From an uncultured bacterium (GTDB lineage: Bacteria > Bacillota_I > Bacilli_A > RFN20 > CAG-826): a stretch of 64,000 nucleotides of DNA. The notes under the pieces are model-generated. The model was not told the DNA's origin and ran no database searches. It worked only from the letters and a program-made list of their open reading frames with translations. Of the stretch, positions 1,409 to 51,106 are shown piece after piece. A program made the translations under genes and the position numbers. The stretch is from NCBI GenBank assembly GCA_949293255.1, contig CASFCL010000001.1:1082-65081 (forward strand), in the 5' to 3' direction. Every line of letters starts with the position of its first letter. Position 1 is the stretch's first letter.

Positions 1409-2077
1409 ATGTTTAGTGAAGATTTTACAAAACTTTCAGGTTCAGACCAAACTAGATTTGCAGAAGTCTGTAATAAATTATTATTAAAAGGATTTGTTGT
1501 CCGAGAATTTTATGATCCTCGTGAAAAAACAATGAGAAATAGCCAAGATTACAAATTTATTGAAAGATATTTTGATATTTTTGAAAACTATTTAAAGTTT
1601 AGCGGATGGACTTTAAAAAGAGATGAAAATCTCGGTGTTTACGCACTTTTTAACGATTATGAAGATAATAGAATTAGAATAGATAGAGAAGCTTCTGTTA
1701 TTTTAGTAACCTTAAGAAAAATTTATGATGATCAAAGACAAGAAAATCAAACATCTGCACAAAGTGGTCAAGCAATTTATCTCACAACAAACGGACTGAT
1801 TGGAGCTATGAAAATTTATGGTATTTTCATGCCAGGAAAAAGACTTACAGGTAGACTTGTAGGAAAATCTTTACGTTTCCTTGCTAACCACAACATTATT
1901 GCAAAAGTAAGTGGTAGTTATGATGAAGGTAATGTTAACTTCTTCATTTTACCATCAATAGTTTATGCTCTTGATAATGATAAAGTCGTTGCAATGAGTA
2001 ACGCACTTGATGAATTAAGAGCTAAAGAAAAAGAAAATCAAGGAGGACTTGTAAATGAAGACGCTTACCAAGGTTAA
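1409..2077 (+). CDS. MukE/JetB(MksE)-like small subunit (222 aa)
   Basis: Acidic 222-aa protein sandwiched between the kleisin-like ORF and the SMC-like ATPase. Its 3' end overlaps the ATPase start by 23 nt (translational coupling). Size and position fit DUF4194/MukE-like subunits; no motif proof. Confidence 0.4.
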   Translation: MFSEDFTKLSGSDQTRFAEVCNKLLLKGFVVREFYDPREKTMRNSQDYKFIERYFDIFENYLKFSGWTLKRDENLGVYALFNDYEDNRIRIDREASVILVTLRKIYDDQRQENQTSAQSGQAIYLTTNGLIGAMKIYGIFMPGKRLTGRLVGKSLRFLANHNIIAKVSGSYDEGNVNFFILPSIVYALDNDKVVAMSNALDELRAKEKENQGGLVNEDAYQG

Positions 2078-5000
2078 AATAATCAATTGGCATTATTTTT
2101 GGAACGAAACTCTTGAAGTTAAACCAATCGTTTTCCTTACAGGTTTAAATGGTAGTGGTAAATCGACTTTAATCGATGCTTTACAAGTCGTTTTACTTGG
2201 TGATACTACAGGAAGATACTTTAATAAAGCAGCTATGGATAAATCTGCTCGTACTTTAAAAGGTTACCTTAGAGGTGAGCTTAGTGATACGATGGATGGC
2301 GGATTTAAATATTTAAGAAACGGAAGATTCACTTCCTATATCGCTCTTGAATTTTTTGATACATTAAAAGAAAAATCATTCACCATGGGTATTGTTTTCG
2401 ATATCTTTGAAAGCGGTGATGAAGAACATAGATTCTTCTTCTTAAATGGACCAATTCCTGAAAATCAATTTATTAATGATAGAATTCCAATGGATTACAA
2501 GACATTATCTTGCTATTTAAAAGATAATGAAATTCCTCATGAATTCTTCGATAGCAATACAAAATATAAAGACTTCTTAAAACAACAATTTGGTGGATTA
2601 AAAGATAAATATTTCTCTCTTTTAAAGAAAGCTACATCTTTCTCACCAATTACTGATATTACAACATTTATTACTCAATATGTTTGTGATCCTCAAGCCG
2701 ACATCGAAGTAGGTCTTTTACAAGAAAATATTCAAAACTATAAACGTCTTGAAGAAGAAGCAAAAGTTATTGCTGCAAGAATCGAAAAGCTCGAAGCCAT
2801 CGAAGAAAATTACAATAGATACAAAGAAAATTTAGAGACATTTAAGATTGCTCAATATATCGTAGAAAGATGTGAACTTGAAGGAGCAAAAGATAAATTA
2901 GATGCTTATAAAAGACAAATTCAATCTGCTAAAGATCGTCTTTTAGCAATCGAGATTGAAGTCTCTGATTTTAGACAAAAATTAGCTGATTTAGATAAGA
3001 AAAAGATTAGATTAATTCAAGATAAATCATCTAACTCAGTCGCAAAATTAACTGATGAATTAAATGAACAAAAACAAGATATAACCAAAGAAATGCAAGA
3101 AATCGAAAGAAATGCAAAACTTGTTTCTAACAATTTAAACAATTTATGCAATTCTTATCTCGATGCTGCAAATTCTTTAACAACAAATTTATCAAACTTT
3201 GATTTAACTATCTTAGATGAAGATGAAACTGAAGATATTCAGGAATTACTTACTGAATGTAATCATATCGTCAAAGTTTGTATGGATTTTAGAACAACTT
3301 ATGCAAATGATTTACCTTTACTTACAAAAGAAAATTTAATTGAATTTGGTAAAGAACTTGAACCATTTAGAACAAAAGTTGCTTCTTTAGCAGTTTCTAT
3401 TTCAAGAACTTGCTCCCAAATCATGAAGAAGATTGAAACTTTACAAAAAGAAGAAGCTTCAATGAAAATGGGTCAAAAAGCTTATCCAGCAGGTTTATTA
3501 ACTATTAAAAATAGATTAGAAGAAGAACTTTATAACAAATATCATAAGACAATTGAAGTAAATATTTATTGCGACCTTATTGATATTAGAGATTTAAGCT
3601 GGTCAGATGCAATCGAAGGATATTTAGCACCACAAAAATTTAACTTATTTGTCGCTCCTAAATATTATGTCGATGCCTATAAGATTTTAAAAGAAATCTT
3701 AAGAGAAGAAAATTTCTACGGAACAGCTTTAGTTGATGAAGAAAGAATTATTGAAAGAAATTATCAAAGCGAAGTTGGATCTCTTGCTGATGAAATTAAA
3801 ACTACTCATGATGGAGCAAGAGCTTATACAAACTTCTTAGTCGGTAGACTTTATAAAGCAAAAGATGTCAATGATGCTAGACAAAGTGGTAATGGTATCA
3901 CAAAAGAATGTGATTTATATAGAAACTTCTCATTATCAAAAATTAGTCCACGTTTATATGCTCAATCCTATATTGGTAGTAACGTTGATGCTAGATTCTT
4001 TGAAGATAAAGAAAGACAAGTTAAAGCCAATCAATCTAACTTAAATATTTTTAGAAAATTAAATGAAATTGTTTCAAAAGCAACATCTCTTGAAGCTCTT
4101 TCAAGTGGTAATATTGAAAATATTTTCATGCTTATTTCAAAAGTTTCAACATTAGAAGGATTAAAGAAAAGTCTCGATTACATCGAAGAACAACTCAAAC
4201 AACACGATACAACTTTACTCAATTCTTTAGATAAGAGAATCGCAGAAACTGAAAAAGAAATTGAAAGTGTAAATAAGAAAATTGAAGAATCTTTAATTGA
4301 AAAAGGTAACTTAAATAAAGAAATCGAATCATTAAAGAATGAAAAGATTGTTAATGAAGAAGAAAATATTCGTACTATCCAAGATAGACTTGCAAATTCA
4401 TATGACTATAACTTAGTCACTGAAGAAGCATCTCCTTTATATGAACAAAGAAGAGCAGAAGGAAATACAAATATTGAAATTTTAAGAGATTTCCAAGCTC
4501 AATTATCAAAACTTCAATACCTTGTTAATAACAACACTCAAGCATTACAAAGATTAAGAAGAGAATATTGTAATGATTATCATCTCTCCTTTGCTGTTGA
4601 TGCTGAAAATAACGACCAATTTGATGTTGAACTTCACGATTTTAGAGATGTTAGATTACCTGAATATCAACAAAAGATCGAAGATTCATATCATAAAGCT
4701 ACCCAACAATTTAGAGATGACTTCATCAATAAATTAAGAGGTGCAATTGAAGATGCCGAAGATCAAATCGAAAACTTAAATCAAGCTTTAATCGAATCAC
4801 AATTCGGTAGAGATAGTTATAGATTTACAGTTACTCCATCTTCAACATATAGAAGATATTACGATATGTTAAAAGATGATATCGTATTAACTTCAGGACA
4901 AGATGAAACATTATTCTTAGAAAAATATAAAGATGTCATGGAAGACTTATTTAAACAAATAGTCGATACCGGTGACAAAAACAAAGCAAGCGAGCTTTCT

Positions 5001-5426
5001 TTGAACGTCCAAAAGTTTACAGATTATCGTAGTTATTTAGATTTTGATTTAGTGGTGTATAATAATGATACTGGGGTTCAAGAACGTCTTTCGCAAATGA
5101 TTAGAAAGAAGTCAGGTGGTGAAACTCAAACACCATTCTATATCGCCGTACTTGCCTCATTTGCTCAACTATATCATGTTAATGATGCAGGAGAGTTAGG
5201 CAATACAACTCGTATAATAATTTTCGACGAAGCTTTCTCTAAGATGGATAAGGGAAGAATTAAAGAAGCAGTCAGACTTTTAAGAAAATTTGACTTGCAA
5301 GTTATTCTCTCAGCTCCATCAGATAAAGTTGGCGATATTTCCGAATTAGTTGACGAAACTTTAGTTGTTCTCCACGAGAAGAACTCAAGCTTTGTTAAAT
5401 TATATGCTCAAGACAAACTGAATTAA
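2055..5426 (+). CDS. MukB/JetC(MksB)-like SMC-family ATPase (1123 aa)
   Basis: AGGAGG RBS at 2041-2046, 8 nt before the ATG. N-terminal Walker A is LTGLNGSGKSTLIDALQVVLLGD. Middle ~700 aa is rich in E/K/L/Q heptad-like sequence (coiled coil). C-terminal head has the SGGE signature-like motif (KKSGGETQTPFYIAVLASF) and Walker B/D-loop IIIFDEAFSKMD. Confidence 0.7.
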   Translation: MKTLTKVKIINWHYFWNETLEVKPIVFLTGLNGSGKSTLIDALQVVLLGDTTGRYFNKAAMDKSARTLKGYLRGELSDTMDGGFKYLRNGRFTSYIALEFFDTLKEKSFTMGIVFDIFESGDEEHRFFFLNGPIPENQFINDRIPMDYKTLSCYLKDNEIPHEFFDSNTKYKDFLKQQFGGLKDKYFSLLKKATSFSPITDITTFITQYVCDPQADIEVGLLQENIQNYKRLEEEAKVIAARIEKLEAIEENYNRYKENLETFKIAQYIVERCELEGAKDKLDAYKRQIQSAKDRLLAIEIEVSDFRQKLADLDKKKIRLIQDKSSNSVAKLTDELNEQKQDITKEMQEIERNAKLVSNNLNNLCNSYLDAANSLTTNLSNFDLTILDEDETEDIQELLTECNHIVKVCMDFRTTYANDLPLLTKENLIEFGKELEPFRTKVASLAVSISRTCSQIMKKIETLQKEEASMKMGQKAYPAGLLTIKNRLEEELYNKYHKTIEVNIYCDLIDIRDLSWSDAIEGYLAPQKFNLFVAPKYYVDAYKILKEILREENFYGTALVDEERIIERNYQSEVGSLADEIKTTHDGARAYTNFLVGRLYKAKDVNDARQSGNGITKECDLYRNFSLSKISPRLYAQSYIGSNVDARFFEDKERQVKANQSNLNIFRKLNEIVSKATSLEALSSGNIENIFMLISKVSTLEGLKKSLDYIEEQLKQHDTTLLNSLDKRIAETEKEIESVNKKIEESLIEKGNLNKEIESLKNEKIVNEEENIRTIQDRLANSYDYNLVTEEASPLYEQRRAEGNTNIEILRDFQAQLSKLQYLVNNNTQALQRLRREYCNDYHLSFAVDAENNDQFDVELHDFRDVRLPEYQQKIEDSYHKATQQFRDDFINKLRGAIEDAEDQIENLNQALIESQFGRDSYRFTVTPSSTYRRYYDMLKDDIVLTSGQDETLFLEKYKDVMEDLFKQIVDTGDKNKASELSLNVQKFTDYRSYLDFDLVVYNNDTGVQERLSQMIRKKSGGETQTPFYIAVLASFAQLYHVNDAGELGNTTRIIIFDEAFSKMDKGRIKEAVRLLRKFDLQVILSAPSDKVGDISELVDETLVVLHEKNSSFVKLYAQDKLN

Positions 5427-5446: not shown

Positions 5447-6580
5447 ATGCCAAGAAAAGTTGTCGCGATGATTCTTGCTGGTGGTAAGGGCACCAGATTA
5501 AAAGCTTTAACCAAAAAAATTGCAAAACCTGCAGTTTATTTTGGTGGCAAATACAGAATCATTGATTTTTGCTTGTCCAACGTAGCAAATTCACAAATCG
5601 ATTGTGTTGGTGTTTTAACACAATACGAATCAGTCGTTTTAAACAATTACATCTCAAATGGTCAAATTTGGGGCTTTGATGGAGTCAATTCTACATGTGC
5701 TGCTTTACCTCCTCGTCAAACCGAAGAAGGTGCTAGCTGGTATAAAGGAACTGCCGATGCAATCGCACAAAATATTGATTTCTTAGATGATGAAGAACCA
5801 GAATATGTTTTAATTTTAAGTGGTGATCATATCTATAAAACAACCTATACAGATATGATTAATCTTCATATCAAAACAAAAGCAAGCTGTACAATTTCTG
5901 TTATGGAAGTTGATTGGAAAGAAGCTTCAAGATTCGGTATCTTAGAAGTCGATACAAAAGACAACATTACAAAATTCGTTGAAAAACCAAAAGAACCAAA
6001 ATCAAATTTAGCTTCAATGGGTGTTTATGTATTCACCTATAAAGATTTAAGAAAAGCATTAGTAGAAGATATGAAAAATCCAAATTCATCTCATGACTTT
6101 GGTAAAGATATCATCCCAACAATGTTAAAAGAAAACAAAAAGTTAGTTGCTTATAGATTTAGTGGATATTGGAGAGATGTCGGTACTTTAGAAAGTTTAC
6201 ATACCGCAAATATGGAACTTTTGCCTTCAAGAAGAACCGAAGAAACCATTCATTTTGATGAATATCCAATTATTTATAGTGAAGATACACATTCTCTTCC
6301 TCAATATATTGGAAAAGAAGCAGCAGTTAAAGATTCTTTAATCAACCAAGGTGCTCAAATCTATGGTAGTGTTGAAGAATCAGTTATTTCAAATGAAGTT
6401 GTTGTTATGCCAGGAGCAGTTGTTAAAAATTCTGTCATCATGCCAGGAGTTAAAATTGGTAGAGATGCAGTCGTTACAAATGCAATTATTGGTCCAAACA
6501 CTGTAATTAACGATAAAGAAGTCGTTAATAAAACAGAAAGTGAAATTGTTTTAATCGATAAAGAAAGGAGCCTTCAATAA
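5447..6580 (+). CDS. glgC: glucose-1-phosphate adenylyltransferase catalytic subunit
   Basis: N-terminus AMILAGGKGTRLKALTKKIAKPAVYFGGKYRIIDFCLSNVANS is the canonical GlgC nucleotide-binding region. C-terminal left-handed beta-helix repeats are present. RBS AAGGAG upstream. Confidence 0.9.
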   Translation: MPRKVVAMILAGGKGTRLKALTKKIAKPAVYFGGKYRIIDFCLSNVANSQIDCVGVLTQYESVVLNNYISNGQIWGFDGVNSTCAALPPRQTEEGASWYKGTADAIAQNIDFLDDEEPEYVLILSGDHIYKTTYTDMINLHIKTKASCTISVMEVDWKEASRFGILEVDTKDNITKFVEKPKEPKSNLASMGVYVFTYKDLRKALVEDMKNPNSSHDFGKDIIPTMLKENKKLVAYRFSGYWRDVGTLESLHTANMELLPSRRTEETIHFDEYPIIYSEDTHSLPQYIGKEAAVKDSLINQGAQIYGSVEESVISNEVVVMPGAVVKNSVIMPGVKIGRDAVVTNAIIGPNTVINDKEVVNKTESEIVLIDKERSLQ

Positions 6581-19261: not shown

Positions 19262-20137
19262 ATGCTTGTACAGATAATTGATCAGTATCCAATCCAAGAC
19301 ATAATTGTTATTCTATTTGTACTTTTAGGTGTTTTAATTGGTGCCTGCCAAGGCTTACTTAGAAAATTACATAGAATGGTTATTTTGGTGGCCGTTTTCT
19401 TAATTATCTACTTTATTTTTAGTGGTATTTTAAGCGATCGGATAAGGTACAATTCATTAGCTGATTTCAATTTTGTTTTATCATTTACCTACGAAAACAT
19501 AACTTTTGAGGTCTATTCTGTAGAAGATTTATTTGTTCTTTTTCAAAATTTAGGAGTTGATAGTGGACTATTAAAAATGACTTGTGAGGGACTTTGCGAT
19601 GCATTGTCTTTTGCTATTTTATTTATAGTGTCTATCTTCTTATCAACGTTTATCAGTTGGATATTATTCGACTTAATATTCAAACATATCTTTCCTCAAA
19701 GTTGGGTTAAAGGTGGCCTTCTTAAAAGAATACTTGGTGCTTTACTTGGAGGAGTTGAATGGCTTGCAATTTTAGTCGTAATATCTGTAGCTTTAGGTAG
19801 TATTACCGGCGGCTTAAATGAAGTTGTCGTACCTGAACTTCAAGATCCAAATTCAGGAGTTGCTCAACTTATAACTTCCTTTGGTGGAGTTGATGCTTCA
19901 ATGCTTGAAAATATTGCATCTTACATGCAAATTGCTAGTGGAATTTTAAGCCCAGTAAGTGACAAAGCAACAATCATTCCAAATATCGTTGGATTATTCA
20001 AAGATATGAATCTTGATTTATTGAAATTATTTAGTGGAGGATCATACAATTCTTCAAATGAACTTGTTGAATCTTCACTTTACGATGGAATGGTTACATT
20101 CTGGAATGAAATTCGTCAGATAGCATCAAAAATTTAG
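19262..20137 (+). CDS. CvpA-family-like integral membrane protein with C-terminal extension
   Basis: N-terminal part (IIVILFVLLGVLIGACQGLLRKLHRMVILVAVFLII..) resembles colicin V production protein CvpA. 4 or more TM helices; 291 aa. Confidence 0.45.
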   Translation: MLVQIIDQYPIQDIIVILFVLLGVLIGACQGLLRKLHRMVILVAVFLIIYFIFSGILSDRIRYNSLADFNFVLSFTYENITFEVYSVEDLFVLFQNLGVDSGLLKMTCEGLCDALSFAILFIVSIFLSTFISWILFDLIFKHIFPQSWVKGGLLKRILGALLGGVEWLAILVVISVALGSITGGLNEVVVPELQDPNSGVAQLITSFGGVDASMLENIASYMQIASGILSPVSDKATIIPNIVGLFKDMNLDLLKLFSGGSYNSSNELVESSLYDGMVTFWNEIRQIASKI

Positions 20138-28088: not shown

Positions 28089-28863
28089 CGTCAGTTTAAT
28101 CATATATTTCATTATTAGTTTAGTTATATCGGTTTTATTTTGGTATGTAACAAACGATTTAATCTTAGCTCTAGTACTTTTTGTTATAGCAATTGCTGTT
28201 CATATGTTTATTTTTAAAAAGGAAAAAGAGTCTAGTTTAGTGATTTCTAGAGCAAAAGAAGCAATAACATTTATCAATAATTTTATTATCACTTTAAGTA
28301 TTAAAAAGAATGTTTTATCTACTTTTAAAAGTGTCAGTGAATCTTTTTCTGATACCTTAAAACAACAAGTAGAGCTAATTGATCACCTTAATGTTGATGA
28401 AAAAATTGTTTATTTAGCGAAATATTTTAAAGTTGATATCTATAAAGTATTCTTAAAAATTATCGACCAATATAATTTCAATGGTGGAGATATTTTAAAT
28501 ATTTCGCAATTATTAATGTATGATAGTCGAAAAATTGATGAATCAATCAATGAATATACATATGTAAGTAGAAGAAAACTGATTGAATTTATTTCATTAT
28601 GGGCATTAACGTTTTCTGTTTTAATCATATTAAAAGTGGCTCTTGGTGATTTTTTCGACCAAATTGTTAGTATGGATTTTTTTGCAATTTCAATCTTTGG
28701 TTTCAATTTAGTGTTCTTATTATCTTATTACTTATTTATGGCTAAATTTTTCAATATTAATTATATAAAAGGAGAATTTAAAGATGACGAAAAAGCTCAA
28801 AAACTTAATAAACGAAGTTGGCTTAAGTTACAAAAACGAGATCTCAAAACTAATTGCGATTAA
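28075..28863 (+). CDS. TadB/TadC-like platform membrane protein (single T2SS-F-like domain)
   Basis: N-terminal TM pair, about 130-aa cytoplasmic helical domain, then C-terminal TM helices. This is the half-size GspF architecture typical of TadB/TadC. Start overlaps the ATPase stop. Confidence 0.5.
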   Translation: MKKNNVSLIIYFIISLVISVLFWYVTNDLILALVLFVIAIAVHMFIFKKEKESSLVISRAKEAITFINNFIITLSIKKNVLSTFKSVSESFSDTLKQQVELIDHLNVDEKIVYLAKYFKVDIYKVFLKIIDQYNFNGGDILNISQLLMYDSRKIDESINEYTYVSRRKLIEFISLWALTFSVLIILKVALGDFFDQIVSMDFFAISIFGFNLVFLLSYYLFMAKFFNINYIKGEFKDDEKAQKLNKRSWLKLQKRDLKTNCD

Positions 28864-29458
28864 TTTATTATTCCTTTTAGCAATCGCTAGTATAGTCTTA
28901 TTCTTTTACAATTTATTACTTGTAATTGTTATTGTCTTTTTAGCAGTAGTTTTTGATTATCGGTATTTTTATCGATATTCACAAATGAAAGAGAAGATTA
29001 GAGAGAAACAAATTGACGAATTTATCGAGATATTTTCATATTTTAGAATTTATGTAAGTAATAACGAAAATGTATATACAGCTTTAAAAAATATATTACA
29101 GTTTGCATCTTATAATACAAAAGAAAGATTACAAACTTTGATCAACGAAATTGATGAAGATAAAAGCTTAGCCCCATTTGTTAAATTTTCAGATTATTAT
29201 AAAAATAAAACAATAGAAGAAGTAATGGTTTCTTTATATGAGATGATTTGTGAAGGAAATGAGTTAATCTACCTAAATCAATTTATTAGAGTATTTGAGG
29301 AATTTAAAACTCAAAGAAATAATGATAGTAAAACTAAACGATATAAGGTTTTTGATTATCTAACTTTGTTTAGTTTAGGAGGTAGCGGAATATTAATGAT
29401 AATTCTTGTTTTTGGAATTATTAATTTATTAGGAGATATGAATTTTAATGGGTTCTAA
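28784..29458 (+). CDS. second TadB/TadC-like platform membrane protein
   Basis: Same TM, helical domain, TM layout (224 aa). Its ORF overlaps the previous one by 80 nt in another frame. Confidence 0.45.
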   Translation: MTKKLKNLINEVGLSYKNEISKLIAINLLFLLAIASIVLFFYNLLLVIVIVFLAVVFDYRYFYRYSQMKEKIREKQIDEFIEIFSYFRIYVSNNENVYTALKNILQFASYNTKERLQTLINEIDEDKSLAPFVKFSDYYKNKTIEEVMVSLYEMICEGNELIYLNQFIRVFEEFKTQRNNDSKTKRYKVFDYLTLFSLGGSGILMIILVFGIINLLGDMNFNGF

Positions 29459-43401: not shown

Positions 43402-45720
43402 ATGAAAAAAGTATTTGAGACCGAGTTTTTTGGGAAAAAACTCATTGTAGAAACAGGAGAAATCGCAAAACAAGCAGATGGCGCTGTTTTTGTAAGATTT
43501 AATGACACAGTTGTTTTATCAACTGTTTGCTGTAGTAACGAACCAAAAGAGGGAGATTTCTTCCCTTTAACAGTTGGATACGAAGAAAAGCAATATGCCA
43601 TCGGTAGAATCCCAGGTGGATTCTTAAGAAGAGAAGGTAGACCAGGAGAACATGCTACCTTAACTGCAAGATTAATTGATAGACCAATTAGACCAATGTT
43701 CTCTGAAGGATTTAGAAACGAAGTTCAAATTGTTAATACCGTCATGAGTGTTGACTTAGATTCAACACCTGAAATGACTGCAATGTTTGGCTCTTCACTT
43801 GCATTATGTATATCAGATATTCCATTTGATGGACCAATTGCTGGTGTTTATGTTGGTAAAGTTGATGGAAAATTAGTAATTAACCCAACAGTTGAAGAAA
43901 GAGAAAGATCAGAATTAAATTTAGCTGTTGCTGGTAGTAAAGAGGCTATCAACATGGTTGAAGCTGGTGCAAATGAATTAAGCGAAGATGAAATGCTTGA
44001 TGCTATTATGTTTGGACATGTAGCAATCAAAAAACTTTGCGAATTCCAAGAAAGTATTGTTAAGGAAATTGGAAAACCAAAAAGAGAAGTTTCTCTTTAT
44101 GCCCCAGATCCAGTAATTAAAGAAGATATTTATTCAAGAATTTACGATAGAATGGTTAAATCCATCTCAATTTTCGACAAACTTGAAAGACAAAACGCAA
44201 TCGATAATCTTAAAAATGAAATTTTAGATGATTATGATGCAAGAGCTTATAAAAATGAAAAAGATCACAATCTTTCAATGTTAATGGTTAACGACATTTT
44301 GGAAAAAATGGTCGCTGATGAAGTCAGAAGATTAATTACTGAAGAAAAAATCAGACCTGATGGAAGAAAAGTAGATGAAATTAGACCTCTTGATGCTCAA
44401 GTTGGTTTACTTCCAAGAGTTCATGGTAGTGCAATGTTTACTCGTGGACAAACTCAAGTCATCTCAACATGTACTTTAGGTATTAAAGAAGATGAACAAA
44501 TTTTAGAAAATTTATCTCCAGAAGAAACAAAACGCTGGATGCATCATTATAATTTCCCACCTTATTCAGTTGGTGAAATCGGAAGAATGGGAACTCCAGG
44601 CAGAAGAGAAATTGGACATGGTGCTTTAGGTGAAAGAGCACTTTCGTATGTTTTACCATCAGTCGAAGAATTCCCATACACAATTAGATGTGTTGCAGAA
44701 GTTTGTGAATCAAATGGTTCATCATCTCAAGCTTCAATCTGTGCTTCATGTATGGCACTTATGGATGCAGGTGTCCCAATTAAGAGAATGGTTAGTGGTA
44801 TTGCAATGGGATTAATCACTAGTGGACCACTTGATGGAAATCATCCATATACAATTTTAACTGATATCCAAGGTTTAGAAGATCACTTCGGTGATATGGA
44901 CTTCAAAGTTGCTGGTACTGAAAAAGGTGTCACAGCTTTACAAATGGATATCAAAATTAAAGGTGTTACAAGAGAAATTCTTCATGATGCATTAATGCAA
45001 GCACATGATGCAAGAGCTCAAATTAGAGAAGTAATGTCAAAAGCAATTAGCAAACCAAGAAGTGAACTTTCAAAATGGGCTCCTAAATTTGACACTATTC
45101 AAATCGATAAAGATAAGATTAAAGATGTTATCGGAACTGGTGGAAAAGTTATTAATGACATTATTGAAAAATGTAATGATGTTAAAATCGACATTGAAGA
45201 TAATGGTTTAGTTTCAATCTACCACATGGATAGAGAATCAATTAACAAAGCAAAACAAATGATTGAAGACATTGTTAGAGTTCCTCAAATTGGTGAAGTC
45301 TTTAACGGAACTATTACAAGAATTGAAGATTTTGGTGTATTTGTTAACTTATTTGGAAACAAAGAAGGTTTATGCCACGTTTCATCTCTTGATTGGAAAT
45401 TTGTTAAATCAGCAAAAGGTTATGCAAATATTGGAGACAAACTTTTAGTTAAGATTATTGATATTGATGATCATGGCAAAATTAAAGTTTCACATAAAGA
45501 TGCTATCGAAAAACCTGCTAATCTCGAACAAAATAGTAGAAAATCATTCGATAACAATGATAGAAACAATCAAAGAAAGAACAATTCAAATAACAACAAC
45601 TTAAAATCTTTTGTAAAAGAAGATAAGAAAAAAGAAGAAGCTTACCCACAAGAAGCTTCTCAACCAAAAGGAAAAGAAGAAGATAAAAAAGGATTCTTCT
45701 CTAATTTATTTAAAAAATAA
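43402..45720 (+). CDS. pnp: polyribonucleotide nucleotidyltransferase (PNPase) with low-complexity Asn/Lys-rich C-terminal tail
   Basis: Two RNase PH domains plus KH and S1 domains (FNGTITRIEDFGVFVNL). 772 aa. Tail NNDRNNQRKNNSNNNNLKSF..KGKEEDKKGFFSNLFKK. Confidence 0.95.
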   Translation: MKKVFETEFFGKKLIVETGEIAKQADGAVFVRFNDTVVLSTVCCSNEPKEGDFFPLTVGYEEKQYAIGRIPGGFLRREGRPGEHATLTARLIDRPIRPMFSEGFRNEVQIVNTVMSVDLDSTPEMTAMFGSSLALCISDIPFDGPIAGVYVGKVDGKLVINPTVEERERSELNLAVAGSKEAINMVEAGANELSEDEMLDAIMFGHVAIKKLCEFQESIVKEIGKPKREVSLYAPDPVIKEDIYSRIYDRMVKSISIFDKLERQNAIDNLKNEILDDYDARAYKNEKDHNLSMLMVNDILEKMVADEVRRLITEEKIRPDGRKVDEIRPLDAQVGLLPRVHGSAMFTRGQTQVISTCTLGIKEDEQILENLSPEETKRWMHHYNFPPYSVGEIGRMGTPGRREIGHGALGERALSYVLPSVEEFPYTIRCVAEVCESNGSSSQASICASCMALMDAGVPIKRMVSGIAMGLITSGPLDGNHPYTILTDIQGLEDHFGDMDFKVAGTEKGVTALQMDIKIKGVTREILHDALMQAHDARAQIREVMSKAISKPRSELSKWAPKFDTIQIDKDKIKDVIGTGGKVINDIIEKCNDVKIDIEDNGLVSIYHMDRESINKAKQMIEDIVRVPQIGEVFNGTITRIEDFGVFVNLFGNKEGLCHVSSLDWKFVKSAKGYANIGDKLLVKIIDIDDHGKIKVSHKDAIEKPANLEQNSRKSFDNNDRNNQRKNNSNNNNLKSFVKEDKKKEEAYPQEASQPKGKEEDKKGFFSNLFKK

Positions 45721-45722
45721 AA

Positions 45723-46262
45723 ATGAAATTATTAATTGCTAGCGATTTACATGGTTCTAGAGGGGCAAGCGAAAAGCTTGTCTCTTTAGAGAACCATTTT
45801 AATTTTTATAAAATCTTTTTATTAGGTGATATCGGTTATAGTGGTGCTAGAAATGTTCCTCCAATTGATTATTATCCAATTGATGTTTATAAAAATTTGA
45901 ATGAAATTAAAGATAAATTAGTCATTGTTCGAGGTAACTGTGACTCTAGAGTTGATGAATATGTTTTAAATAAGAAATTTTATGATAAAAAAGTATTTAA
46001 AATTTCTGGATATAAATTTTATTTAACTCACGGAGATATCTATAACGAATCATCTTTTAATCTAAAAGAAAATGATTTTTATCTTTATGGACATACTCAT
46101 GTTTATGAATTAACTAAAAAAGAATATATAGTTTTAAATCCAGGTAGCTTATCTTTACCAAAAATTAATAAAGAGAAAACTTATATTATTATTGATTTAA
46201 CTGAACGTGAAATTACGCTTTACGACTTTGATGATAAACCTTTAAAAACCCTTAATTTTTAG
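45723..46262 (+). CDS. YfcE/MJ0936-family metallophosphoesterase
   Basis: Motifs DLHGS, LGDIGYSG, GNCD, THGD and GHTHV of the calcineurin-like phosphoesterase fold. 179 aa. Confidence 0.75.
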   Translation: MKLLIASDLHGSRGASEKLVSLENHFNFYKIFLLGDIGYSGARNVPPIDYYPIDVYKNLNEIKDKLVIVRGNCDSRVDEYVLNKKFYDKKVFKISGYKFYLTHGDIYNESSFNLKENDFYLYGHTHVYELTKKEYIVLNPGSLSLPKINKEKTYIIIDLTEREITLYDFDDKPLKTLNF

Positions 46263-46438
46263 AAATACTAGGGTTCTGCATGGTTTTTATCAAAAAATAC
46301 ATGATTTAATATACTTTTAAATTTTTATTAAAAATCTTTTTTTATTGTCTTAATTAATATAAAATATTAATAGATGGTCAAAAAATATTTTTATAATTGA
46401 AAATTTTTAACAGATCGTTAATAGGAGAATTATTGTAG

Positions 46439-48127
46439 ATGGACAAAATTAAAATTTTAGCTTTAGGTGGCCTTGATGAAGAAGGTCGTGATCTTTATTG
46501 TATTGAAATAAACGGCGATATTATCGTAATTGGTGGAGGATTAAAGACTCCAACTAAAACTACTCCCGGAATTGATTTCATCATTTCTAATTTTTCATAC
46601 TTAAAAGAAAATAAAGATCGAGTTATAGCTTTTATTGTTCCAAAAGCTAAAAAGAATAGTTTTGGTGCTATTCCTTATATTTATCAAGAAGTTCAAGCTC
46701 CTATTATTTGTACCGATTTAGCAAAATTAACCATCACAAAATTTGCTGAAACGTATCAACAAGTCCATGATTTTAAATTTAATACAATAAAATTACCTGC
46801 AACTATAAATATTGGCGGGCATGTAATTGATTTCTTCTCAACTTGTGCATCAATGCCTGAAACTTTTGGCTTTGCTATCCGCACAAATTTAGGAAACATT
46901 ATTTATAGTGGTGACTTCATTGTTGAATATGCAAACGCAAATTATTTCAAATTAGATTTAAATACTTTAGGTAAAATTGCTGAACAACCAACTTTACTTT
47001 TAATGTCGGAATCAATTAATTCTACAAAAGCTGGTTATTGTGCTCCAAATCATAAACTTACTCCTTTTTTAACAAAATATTTTAAAGAAGCTACTGGAAG
47101 AATATTTATTGCAGTAAATAATGATAATTTTTATAGAATTAACGAAGTATATCAAGTCTGTAAGGATTTTAATAAAAAAATATTCTTGTATGATGATGAA
47201 ATGAAAAACATTTACAATCTTCGCTCACTTGCAAAAGATGATTACTTTAATGCCAAAAACATCATATCTATCGATGATGTTTTAAGAATTAAAGAACAAG
47301 ATTTGGTTATTTTAATGGGTGATGAAGGTGAAAGAATATACGAAAAAATCTCTATTTTAGCTAATAGAGAAAATGAAGAAAAACAAATTAAACTTCAACC
47401 AAACGATACATTTATTGTCGCTGCACCTCCATCAGATAAAAATGAAGTAATTGCAACAGCAACAGTTGATGAATTATATAAAGCTGGGTGTAATGTTAAG
47501 TTTATTGGTTCAAAAAATATCAATAAAATGCATGCTTATGAAGAAGATCTTCGAATGCTTCTTTCCTTACTTAAACCAAAATATTATTTACCAGTAAAAG
47601 GTTATTATGTAAATCTACTTGCCAACGCAAAAATTGGCCTTGATATGAATATTGGATTGACTCATTTTAATATTTTCTTACTTGATAATGGCCAATCTTT
47701 ATATATCGGTGAAAAAGGAGCAAATGTCGACTTTGATGTAAATAGAAAAGTTGATGTAAGTGACGTTATGATCGATGGAATTGGCGTTGGCGATGTCGTT
47801 AATGAAATTATTAATGAACGTACAAGATTAAGTGAAGATGGTGTTGTTATTATTGGATGTGCAGTTTCAAAAACTGAACGTACAATTGCATATGGACCAG
47901 ATGTCCAAATGAGAGGTTTCCTTTTCTTAAAAGATAAAGAAGCTGACTTATTACTTAAAGAAATTACAAAGATTTTTATCGATGATGTTAATGCTTGGCT
48001 TGAAACAACTAAAAACTTCGATAATAAGAGTGTTGAAAACGCAATAACTTATAAAATTAGCAAGATGATTCAAAAATTAAATAACAGAAATCCTGTTATT
48101 AAACCAAATGTTATTGTTGTAGAATAA
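46439..48127 (+). CDS. RNase J-family paralog with degenerate catalytic motifs (probable non-catalytic, RNase J2-like)
   Basis: Collinear with B. subtilis RNase J1. ILALGGLDEEGRDLY matches VFALGGLGEIGKNTY. HGHEDHIGGIPYL is replaced by VPKAKKNSFGAIPYI, TTHSIPDS by STCASMPET, and IHGEYR by VKGYYV. The beta-CASP block YSGDFI is retained. Confidence 0.7.
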   Translation: MDKIKILALGGLDEEGRDLYCIEINGDIIVIGGGLKTPTKTTPGIDFIISNFSYLKENKDRVIAFIVPKAKKNSFGAIPYIYQEVQAPIICTDLAKLTITKFAETYQQVHDFKFNTIKLPATINIGGHVIDFFSTCASMPETFGFAIRTNLGNIIYSGDFIVEYANANYFKLDLNTLGKIAEQPTLLLMSESINSTKAGYCAPNHKLTPFLTKYFKEATGRIFIAVNNDNFYRINEVYQVCKDFNKKIFLYDDEMKNIYNLRSLAKDDYFNAKNIISIDDVLRIKEQDLVILMGDEGERIYEKISILANRENEEKQIKLQPNDTFIVAAPPSDKNEVIATATVDELYKAGCNVKFIGSKNINKMHAYEEDLRMLLSLLKPKYYLPVKGYYVNLLANAKIGLDMNIGLTHFNIFLLDNGQSLYIGEKGANVDFDVNRKVDVSDVMIDGIGVGDVVNEIINERTRLSEDGVVIIGCAVSKTERTIAYGPDVQMRGFLFLKDKEADLLLKEITKIFIDDVNAWLETTKNFDNKSVENAITYKISKMIQKLNNRNPVIKPNVIVVE

Positions 48128-48190: not shown

Positions 48191-51106
48191 GTGAAAAATG
48201 ATAGACATTTAAGAGATTTTATTGATGTAGCAAATAAAAAATCCGCAATCGGTGTATTTGTTTGTCTTTTTGCTATTTTTGGAACATTAAATTATGGATT
48301 TGTTTCCCAATTTATTACATGGGTTATCTCATTTTTTGTTGGTGGAATTTTCTCCTTTTTTGTTTATATAATAATCTTCTTATTAGGAATTTATTTAATT
48401 TTCAATCGTAACCAAAAGAAAATTAACTTTGACATTACAATTTTTGGATTAATTTTTATTTTTTTAGGCGTAATCATAATCGTTTCTAATTCATTTTATT
48501 ATGTTGATAGTGAAAATTACTTAAGATTTGATTCTGAATTTTCTCAAAATTTTATGTCATCAATCTCAATTGATGAAACTTTCCCACTTGTTGATTATTC
48601 AAAAAACTGTGGTTTAATCGGTGTAATTTTAACTGCAATTATTAATAGCGGAATGACTTATATTGGAAGTTATGTGATTGGATCAATTCTTCTTTGTGTT
48701 GGATTTGTACTTACCTGTACAAAATTATTCATCAGATTTACAAAAGTTATTTCTGACTATAGAAATCGTGTTCTTTCTACAAGTTCAAAGGCAAATTATC
48801 AACAAGCTAGCGATGCTTTTAACGGAACAGAAGAAATTAAAGATGAGTCAAGAGTAATAAGTGAACCAAAATTAGCAATGGATAGTTCTGATTTAGATTC
48901 TCAAGAAAATGTAAGTGAAATTAATGTTGGAGAATCTACTCATCAAGAAATTACTAACAACGAACCTACAAATGTATATCAACCAAGTCAAAATACGAAT
49001 GTAAATACAAATTACACTCCAAATAAATCTAATAATCCTGTTTATAACGAACCTTTATATAAAGATAAACCTGTTTATTCATCTCAAAGTGATATGGATA
49101 GTGGTTTAAGAAAGGCAATTTTTGATAATCCTTTATTTAATAACCAACCAAAACATGATAGTTATCAAGAAAATTATGTTAATAGAAGTTATCAAGAAGA
49201 ACCTCGACCAGTTTATCAAAATACTCAAAATGTAAATCCATATCAAAATCAAAACATTTCGACTAATAATTATCAAAATCATATTGAAACTCCAATTAGT
49301 CTAAATATTGTAGAAGAACCAGTTATTGAAAGTACTCCAATTCCTCAACAACAAATTTCTTCATACTATCAAAGAGCATCTGAGGTTCACTATGTTGAAC
49401 AACCTATCGAACCAACTCAAATTAAGGAAAATGGTGAATCAATTATTATGAAAGCATCTAATGCAACTGGTGAAGGTGAATATTATGAAGTTAAACCTGA
49501 ACCAACACCAGTTATTTCTAGAGAGCCTCTTAGACAAAAAGTTGAACCAAAAGTTAATACAAATGACATCGTTTCTAGTGTTAGAAATTATGAATTCCCA
49601 CCTTCTGATTTACTTTTAGTAAGAGAAAATTCTAAAAATGATGATATAAATAAAAAGACTGCTGAAGAAAGAATTGAAATAATCAACAAATTATGTCGAG
49701 ATTTCAACTTCGGAGGTCATATTGAATCTTATCAAATCGGACCATCAGTTACTCGTTATGATTTAAAAGTTAACGAATCAACCCAAGTTACAAAGTTTGT
49801 TAATTTAGTTGAAGATTTATCTGTTCGTTTAGGTGGATTTAAGGCTCGTTTTGAAGCAGTTGTTCCAGGAAAAAGAACTAGTGGAATCGAAGTTCAAAAC
49901 GAAAAGAGTAATATTGTTGATTTTAGGGATGTTTTTGAACATTTACCTCCAATAAATGAGAAAAAATATAACGGATTATTAATTCCTTTTGGAAAAGATA
50001 TTTCAGGTAATTATGTAACTGCAGATTTAAGAGAATTCCCACATGTTCTTATTTGTGGAACTACAGGTAGTGGTAAATCTGTCTTTATGCAAACAATGAT
50101 TATGACTATCATTATGAGAAATTCTCCTGAAGATGTCCGTTTATTTATTATCGATCCAAAACGTGTTGAGTTCTCAAAATATCGTGAAATTCCTCACTTA
50201 TTAGGACCAATTTGTACCGAACCTCATCAAGCATATAATGGATTAAGTCAACTTGTTGAAATTATGGAAAGACGCTACAAAGTCTTTGAAGATACCGAAG
50301 TAACCGATATAAAAGAATATAATAGAGATTATGCTCCTGCACATAAACTTAAGAAAATGCCTTATATTGTCGCAGTTATCGATGAATATTCGAACTTAGT
50401 TGATGGTTGTAAAAAGGTTAGCGAACCAGTTTTAAGTATTGCTCAAAAAGCTAGAGCTTGTGGTATTCATTTAATTATTGCAACTCAAGCACCTCGTACC
50501 TCGATCATTACAGGTGTTATTAAAGCAAATCTTCCTACAAGAGTTGCTTTATTATGTGCTAATACAACTGATTCACAAAACGTTATCGATATTGGTGGTG
50601 CTGAAAGATTACTTGGTAATGGTGATATGCTTATTAAATCACCTCTTATTTCAACAGTTGGATGTGCTCGTGTTCAAGGTGCATTTGTTGAAGGTAAAGA
50701 AATTAAAAATGTTGTTGATTTTATCAAAGCTAGATATGGATGTGATTATGTAACTGAATTTACAAACTTAAGTGCAGCTCCATCTGAACCTCAACAAGTT
50801 CCAGGTGATATTCATGGTCAAATGGCTAAAGCTCAAGATGCACTTTATGAAGAAGTTAAGAGCTTAGCAATGAGCATGGATTATTTCTCAATTTCTAAGA
50901 TTACTAGAGTTTTCAATGTTGGATTTGCCAGAGCTGGAAAATTATTTGAAATGCTTAAAAAAGACGGAATTATCGAGGCAAATCAACAAGGAAATGACTC
51001 TAAAGGTACAAGAGTTTTAGTACATTCAAATACTTATTCAACAGGTGAAACTGTTTTAAGTGGTGAAGATACAAAATTATCAAATATCGAAAATCCAGAT
51101 ATATAG
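48191..51106 (+). CDS. ftsK: DNA translocase FtsK/SpoIIIE
   Basis: N-terminal 4-5 TM helices. About 350-aa N/Q/P/Y-rich linker. Motor domain with Walker A ICGTTGSGKSVFMQ and Walker B VIDEYSNL. C-terminal winged-helix gamma domain (SISKITRVFNVGFARAGKLFEMLKKDGII). GTG start as in the ORF track. Confidence 0.85.
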   Translation: MKNDRHLRDFIDVANKKSAIGVFVCLFAIFGTLNYGFVSQFITWVISFFVGGIFSFFVYIIIFLLGIYLIFNRNQKKINFDITIFGLIFIFLGVIIIVSNSFYYVDSENYLRFDSEFSQNFMSSISIDETFPLVDYSKNCGLIGVILTAIINSGMTYIGSYVIGSILLCVGFVLTCTKLFIRFTKVISDYRNRVLSTSSKANYQQASDAFNGTEEIKDESRVISEPKLAMDSSDLDSQENVSEINVGESTHQEITNNEPTNVYQPSQNTNVNTNYTPNKSNNPVYNEPLYKDKPVYSSQSDMDSGLRKAIFDNPLFNNQPKHDSYQENYVNRSYQEEPRPVYQNTQNVNPYQNQNISTNNYQNHIETPISLNIVEEPVIESTPIPQQQISSYYQRASEVHYVEQPIEPTQIKENGESIIMKASNATGEGEYYEVKPEPTPVISREPLRQKVEPKVNTNDIVSSVRNYEFPPSDLLLVRENSKNDDINKKTAEERIEIINKLCRDFNFGGHIESYQIGPSVTRYDLKVNESTQVTKFVNLVEDLSVRLGGFKARFEAVVPGKRTSGIEVQNEKSNIVDFRDVFEHLPPINEKKYNGLLIPFGKDISGNYVTADLREFPHVLICGTTGSGKSVFMQTMIMTIIMRNSPEDVRLFIIDPKRVEFSKYREIPHLLGPICTEPHQAYNGLSQLVEIMERRYKVFEDTEVTDIKEYNRDYAPAHKLKKMPYIVAVIDEYSNLVDGCKKVSEPVLSIAQKARACGIHLIIATQAPRTSIITGVIKANLPTRVALLCANTTDSQNVIDIGGAERLLGNGDMLIKSPLISTVGCARVQGAFVEGKEIKNVVDFIKARYGCDYVTEFTNLSAAPSEPQQVPGDIHGQMAKAQDALYEEVKSLAMSMDYFSISKITRVFNVGFARAGKLFEMLKKDGIIEANQQGNDSKGTRVLVHSNTYSTGETVLSGEDTKLSNIENPDI

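Follow-up and report, generated by a model that had tools for sequence, protein, structure and literature searches.

An RNase J2-type protein of uncultured gut Bacilli with a degenerate metal site, a probable non-catalytic subunit

The pseudo-J locus and its product

The window (the whole 64-kb stretch of DNA analyzed here) comes from a lineage of uncultured, AT-rich gut Bacilli related to Candidatus Onthovivens. It carries an rnjB-type gene, which we call pseudo-J, in the local order rimP-nusA-infB-rbfA-(tilS-like)-ribF-rpsO-ABC-ABC-pnp-(phosphoesterase)-J-ftsK. The features of the locus are as follows.

43402..45720, + strand: pnp (PNPase), conserved neighbor 5' of pseudo-J
45723..46262, + strand: gene for a YfcE-like calcineurin-type phosphoesterase, between pnp and pseudo-J (assigned by Pfam)
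46423..46427, + strand: Shine-Dalgarno sequence AGGAG, 11 nt 5' of the pseudo-J ATG (sequence read directly)
46439..48127, + strand: pseudo-J, rnjB-type gene of 562 aa, with metallo-beta-lactamase core, beta-CASP insert and C-terminal domain
48191..51106, + strand: ftsK/spoIIIE, conserved neighbor 3' of pseudo-J

The protein is homologous to RNase J over its whole length, as an earlier note on this DNA had claimed. NCBIfam TIGR00649 covers residues 4-557 and the NCBIfam J1 model NF047419 covers residues 4-559, with scores (332 and 340 bits) below the respective curated cut-offs of 400 and 820. The best match among solved structures (HMMER against the PDB) is Staphylococcus epidermidis RNase J2 (6k6w, E=6e-74, query residues 4-558), and the same search finds Bacillus subtilis J1 (3zq4, E=2e-70, full-length collinear) and S. 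epidermidis J1 (6k6s, E=3e-69). Pfam recognizes RNase_J_b_CASP (E=7e-9) and RNase_J_C (E=1e-15) and gives no match for Lactamase_B; the Pfam domains and the structural matches of an AlphaFold model together give the three-domain architecture of RNase J. Mean pLDDT of this model is 85.6 (above 90 near the former active site) and its top Foldseek matches are exclusively RNase J1 and J2 (TM 0.85 to 6k6w, catalytic core); the predicted fold is that of RNase J. In the 176-bp spacer upstream of the gene Rfam finds nothing, and a regulatory RNA at this position was rejected on that ground; a scan for promoters and terminators at pseudo-J gave nothing better than shuffled sequence.

Several other features of the window were recorded in passing. 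The PNPase has a low-complexity tail rich in Lys, Asn and Glu (the C-terminal ~70 aa) after its S1 domain, and the FtsK has a very long linker rich in N, Q, Y and P (residues ~200-450); both look like the intrinsically disordered extensions typical of AT-rich genomes, to judge from their composition. At the start of the window, a JetA fragment (1-1389), JetB (1409-2077) and JetC (2055-5426) form a Wadjet/Mks-like cluster, followed directly by glgC at 5447 and identified by Pfam matches to JetA, JetB/MksE and AAA_29+SbcC_Walker_B (same species). No gene for JetD (the Toprim nuclease) is apparent at this cluster, possibly a nuclease-free JetABC of condensin-like type.

Fate of the metal-ligand motifs

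We mapped residues by means of the HMMER alignment to 6k6w, which is gap-free around motif II; subtracting 14 from the PDB chain numbers yields the numbering of PMC7864078. In this alignment THGHEHA of 6k6w corresponds to P68-K69-A70-K71-K72-N73-S74 of pseudo-J, TTHSIPDS to T135-C136-A137-S138-M139-P140-E141-T142, YTGEF to Y156-S157-G158-D159-F160, HASSHG to N362-K363-M364-H365-A366, and VPVQGEF to L384-P385-V386-K387-G388-Y389-Y390. The ligand positions lie in the gene as follows.

46643..46660, + strand: former motif II (HxHxDH), now K69-A70-K71-K72-N73-S74, with K69 and K71 invariant in the clade (6k6w and clade alignments)
46847..46849, + strand: former motif III His (His-144 in J2), now A137; Ala or Ser in the clade, more rarely Cys or Thr
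46913..46915, + strand: motif IV acid D159, kept, equivalent to Glu-166 in J2 and Asp-164 in J1 and invariant in alignment A1
47531..47533, + strand: motif B His, H365, equivalent to His-370 in J2, retained and invariant
47597..47599, + strand: former motif C His (Gln-392 in J2, His-389 in J1), now K387; Glu, Lys or Gln in the clade

Within motif II, the ligands His-76, His-78 and His-80 of S. epidermidis J2 (the last being Asp-78 in J1) are lost to K69, K71 and N73, and S74 stands at a position whose ligand had already been lost in J2 (Ala-81, against His-79 in J1); the motif C His is likewise already missing from all J2-type relatives. The residues Ser-368 and Ser-369 of the J2 5'-phosphate pocket (Ser/Ser(Gly)) are lost to K363 and M364, and the motif A acid, E191, is retained. 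All four metal-binding His of J2 are replaced in pseudo-J (by K, K, N and A), with D159 alone surviving as acidic ligand; by motif, II, III and C are lost and IV, A and B are kept (D159, E191 and H365).

The motif readings of the earlier note fare well on the whole. It had HGHEDH replaced by VPKAKK, a register two residues off (the aligned segment is KAKKNS, 69-74), and its point that all motif II ligands are gone stands. The replacement of the TTHSIPDS His (A137 at the position of His-144) and the change of IHGEYR to VKGYYV (K387 for the motif C His) are confirmed by the alignment to 6k6w, as is the retention of the GDF block (D159). Its description of the HTSGH region as degenerate is right for the Ser/Gly residues of the phosphate pocket and wrong for H365 of motif B, which is retained and invariant. 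The same alignment rules out motifs that are merely shifted and intact.

A reassigned codon was also considered as the source of the substitutions. In Candidatus Onthovivens, CGG is reported to be reassigned from Arg to Trp (PMC13092985), and the 47 ORFs of at least 120 aa in the window contain two CGG codons versus 549 AGA, one at codon 60 of 19262-20137 and one at codon 60 of 28784-29458, in hydrophobic or aromatic contexts (SDRIRYN and FDYRYFY); this usage appears compatible with either rarity or reassignment. Reassignment was rejected as the cause of the pseudo-J substitutions, the gene having no CGG codon.

Ancestry, recurrence and conservation

Gene order, nearest relatives and tree position all identify pseudo-J as the ortholog of rnjB (RNase J2) and not of J1. 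The order pnp-(yfcE)-J is kept in seven species of the clade (that of the window and six others). In five of the six others (those read far enough) ftsK lies 3' of pseudo-J, and in the P0056 species a class-I tRNA-synthetase gene follows instead. The YfcE-like gene is present in the window and in the P0001, P0002, P0042 and P0060 species and absent from the P0038, P0056 and P0065 species; as only some members of the clade have it, it is an optional element of the arrangement. Presumably ftsK adjoins rnjB in Staphylococcus and Bacillus as well. In Staphylococcus aureus, PNPase (SAR1250) and RNase J2 (SAR1251) have adjacent locus tags (PMC4419217). The nearest relatives (42-46% identity) have THGHDD[QE] or THGHDES, keep the motif III His and show K or R at motif C, which, read from the motifs, is the one-metal J2 pattern.

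In a neighbor-joining tree of the 139 full-length 50%-identity representatives nearest to pseudo-J, the protein sits in a 58-member clade that holds no canonical RNase J (31 members with site 1 intact and site 2 lost, nine partly degenerate, and 18 with site 1 fully lost); the J1-type representatives (713-775 bits with the NCBIfam J1 model) fall outside it. In two other gut-Bacilli lineages a canonical J1 lies directly 3' of pnp and convergent with it (L058, 3001-5309, and L206, 3768-7637), in the slot held by the co-directional pseudo-J in the clade of the window; the PNPases of these lineages are 50-56% identical to that of the window.

Loss of the J2 metal site is found elsewhere in the tree. 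All three first-site His are lost in 19 of the 139 representatives and some of them in 16, and the fully degenerate J2-type proteins fall on at least four separate branches (neighbor-joining), indicating that the loss is recurrent. They include proteins of cultured Mollicutes, Mesoplasma photuris WP_031543288.1 and Spiroplasma endosymbiont WP_342252449.1, both annotated simply as 'ribonuclease J'; because databases give degenerate proteins this name, the enzymatic repertoire is over-stated. One partly degenerate J2-type protein of the same radiation (P0095, 42% identical to pseudo-J) has PDAHDD at motif II, Phe for the motif III His and GDS at motif IV, another route of active-site decay. The rarity of a dead RNase J that the earlier note implied does not hold: fully degenerate J2-type proteins are common in the tree set, and active:inactive beta-CASP pairs are known in Mycoplasma, Staphylococcus, Lactococcus and Streptococcus (PMC8501993), where the J1/J2 complex is likened to CPSF73/100 and IntS11/9 (PMC8501993). 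MG139/MG423 of Mycoplasma genitalium is cited as an active:inactive pair. All Mollicutes surveyed have both J1 and J2 (PMC4014445). As active:inactive RNase J pairs are already described, a degenerate protein like pseudo-J is not very unusual.

The degenerate protein is well conserved. The degenerate motifs of pseudo-J (P-K-x-K-K, S-T-C-[A/S]-S, S-G-D-F, M-H-A-x-E-E-D and P-[I/V]-[E/K/Q]-G-Y-Y-V) recur in about 77 protein clusters with 56-99% identity, all of gut or rumen origin (metagenomes and MAGs); one is named Candidatus Onthovivens sp. A look-up for sequences identical to the pseudo-J protein retrieved no record. In the clade alignments K69, K71, D159 and H365 vary little or not at all, and the best conserved parts are the beta-lactamase core and the segment M-I-D-G-x-G-V-G-D-V-V. 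Compared with the P0002 species, pseudo-J has 76.7% identity and a dN/dS of 0.15, and nine neighboring genes have 52-82% identity; pseudo-J ranks second of these ten genes, after PNPase (81.6%), with FtsK, RibF, PlsC and PulA well below it (57-69%). Compared with the P0038 species, identity is 62% for pseudo-J and 73% for PNPase. Across comparisons the dN/dS of pseudo-J is 0.15-0.29. Strong purifying selection acts on pseudo-J, which is not decaying; a subunit with a structural or regulatory role would be expected to show this.

Function of pseudo-J and comparison with known systems

As the first-site His ligands are all gone in the alignment to 6k6w, a pseudo-nuclease, as the earlier note proposed, appears by far the most likely reading of this J2-type paralog. 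Judged by its lost ligands, pseudo-J would be unable to bind the catalytic metal and would not cleave RNA. Beyond this, we consider it moderately probable that pseudo-J is a non-catalytic J2 subunit that pairs with a catalytic J1. This model rests on precedent: pseudo-J would be kept as a partner of J1, as J2 is in Bacillus and Staphylococcus, it may tune the stability, assembly or substrate choice of J1, and the two proteins would be a bacterial counterpart of CPSF100/CPSF73 or IntS9/IntS11. In S. aureus, a J2 active-site mutant grows normally and a deletion of the gene does not (PMC4419217). In J2 the bound Mn is important for structural integrity and domain orientation, and the residues critical for activity are H80 and E166 (PMC11815676). 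Speculatively, the invariant K69 and K71 might form a salt bridge with the retained D159 and H365 that fills the empty metal pocket, and this bridge might take over the structural role of the Mn.

The catalytic partner was sought around the gene and in related genomes. Searches with phmmer and tblastn found no second RNase J in the 64-kb window. In the same species, the 10 kb beyond either window end (upstream priA...JetA, downstream alaS...fmt; about 84 kb around pseudo-J in total) likewise contain no J1; nor was a J1 found within 10 kb of pseudo-J in six other species of the clade. In the surrounding radiation, a GTDB scan with J1 alignment found a canonical J1 in 32 of 32 gut-Bacilli MAG species among the matches listed, 31 of these 32 J1 proteins fitting all five motif patterns used; none of the 32 loci listed bears the name Onthovivens. 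Among the matches listed in a protein search with the J1-type seed P0238, a single abundant lineage (identity of at least 87%) predominates. Directly after motif IV, all 38 gut-Bacilli J1 sequences (L027-L058 and the P0238/P0352 lineage) have [FY]KFD[FL][NT]P[IV]GP, which is absent from the 197 other RNase J sequences examined and is, on these alignments, a lineage marker for gut-Bacilli J1. At least 120 metagenome contigs match the signature KFD[FL][NT]P[IV]GP; the 1.03-Mb pseudo-J contig (JGI Ga0183095_10028) is not among these matches listed. A tblastn comparison of all window proteins with 152 J1 loci gave no clade-level match, and one J1 locus (L179) that shares its JGI sample with a pseudo-J contig proved to belong to another organism. 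In two gut-Bacilli J1 lineages ftsY/ylxM adjoins rnjA, and one of the two also has rny-recA-pgsA nearby.

That no J1 among the loci compared could be tied to the clade speaks for a different reading, possible but on balance unlikely, in which pseudo-J acts on its own, no longer dependent on J1, as a non-catalytic protein that binds RNA or serves as a scaffold; it might bind or protect 5' ends, for example, or dock on PNPase or on RNase Y to form an assembly resembling a degradosome. Consistent with such a role are the strong conservation despite the absent catalytic residues, the appearance of invariant lysines in what was the active-site cleft, the invariable adjacency to pnp, and the reported interaction of J2 with degradosome components in Staphylococcus and Bacillus (PMC4419217). 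The adjacency of pnp and rnjB is, however, ancestral, being found also in S. aureus with its paired J1 and J2, so it carries no specific signal, and the characterized J2 proteins all work with J1.

Retained ligands bear on whether pseudo-J might still be a ribonuclease, acting through D159, E191 and H365 with the lysines as general base or for charge stabilization, or with a metal bound weakly through other residues. Conservation extends to the retained D159, H365 and motif A acid, and the mechanism of J2 is reported to differ from both one-metal and two-metal schemes, the H78A substitution raising its activity (PMC11815676). It counts against the model of a non-catalytic J1 partner that S. 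epidermidis J2 is reported to occur chiefly as a monomer and its H78A mutant to exceed the wild type in activity (PMC7864078, PMC11815676); J2 chemistry is therefore unconventional, and ligand loss is no formal proof of inactivity. We nevertheless regard residual cleavage as improbable: all four His ligands are gone, including the equivalent of the critical H80 (PMC11815676), H80A/E166A abolishes the activity of J2 (PMC7864078), the 5'-phosphate pocket no longer has its Ser residues, and Pfam Lactamase_B no longer recognizes the domain.

Very doubtful is a reading in which the Onthovivens-related clade has no catalytic RNase J at all and pseudo-J has taken on a new, non-nucleolytic job, such as sensing RNA 5' ends, or holding them, on behalf of PNPase or RNase Y. 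If this were true, the clade would lack 5'-to-3' exonucleolytic decay altogether. Finally, the destroyed catalytic motifs and the scores under the curated cut-offs (332 versus 400 and 340 versus 820 bits) would suit a decaying gene (pseudogene) that a reduced genome is losing, a reading which is scarcely credible and was rejected on the conservation over ~77 clusters (56-99% identity) and the dN/dS of 0.15-0.29, and against which also stand an intact full-length ORF with a good ribosome-binding site, a conservation above that of ftsK, ribF, plsC and pulA, and a confident fold prediction.

With its His ligands gone, pseudo-J amounts to a natural 'active-site knockout' of RNase J2 kept under strong constraint. 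Constraint on so catalytically degenerate a protein supports the view from S. aureus genetics that J2 is mainly structural or regulatory. Complete loss of the J2 metal site has been repeated on at least four branches in reduced-genome Bacilli and Mollicutes, and the conserved K-x-K offers a testable idea, namely that lysines may stand in for a structural metal.

Among known systems, RNase J2 of S. epidermidis and S. aureus (RnjB, 6k6w) shares with pseudo-J the three-domain fold, the location beside pnp and a degenerate second metal site (gone are the final His of motif II and that of motif C), and its catalysis is dispensable for growth of S. aureus; pseudo-J differs in having its four His changed to K, K, N and A and in having lost the Ser residues of the phosphate pocket. 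The degenerate J2-type proteins of Mollicutes (Mesoplasma and Spiroplasma) share the tree clade, the full loss of the first-site His and the context of a small, AT-rich genome, but they are ~29-33% identical to pseudo-J and lie on separate tree branches, the loss being independent, and their replacements (N/K, S/T and others) differ from the conserved K-x-K of the pseudo-J clade. RNase J1 (RnjA) has the same fold and domain order and is collinear over its full length, whereas its HGHEDH and its motif III and motif C His are intact and it binds two metals, and pseudo-J lies outside the J1 clade. In CPSF100/CPSF73 and IntS9/IntS11, as here, a beta-CASP paralog has degenerate metal ligands in a fold that is intact and conserved, and the dead paralogs CPSF100 and IntS9 are obligatory partners of the active CPSF73 and IntS11. 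They belong to another beta-CASP branch with other C-terminal dimerization domains, and for pseudo-J a heterodimer is a prediction.
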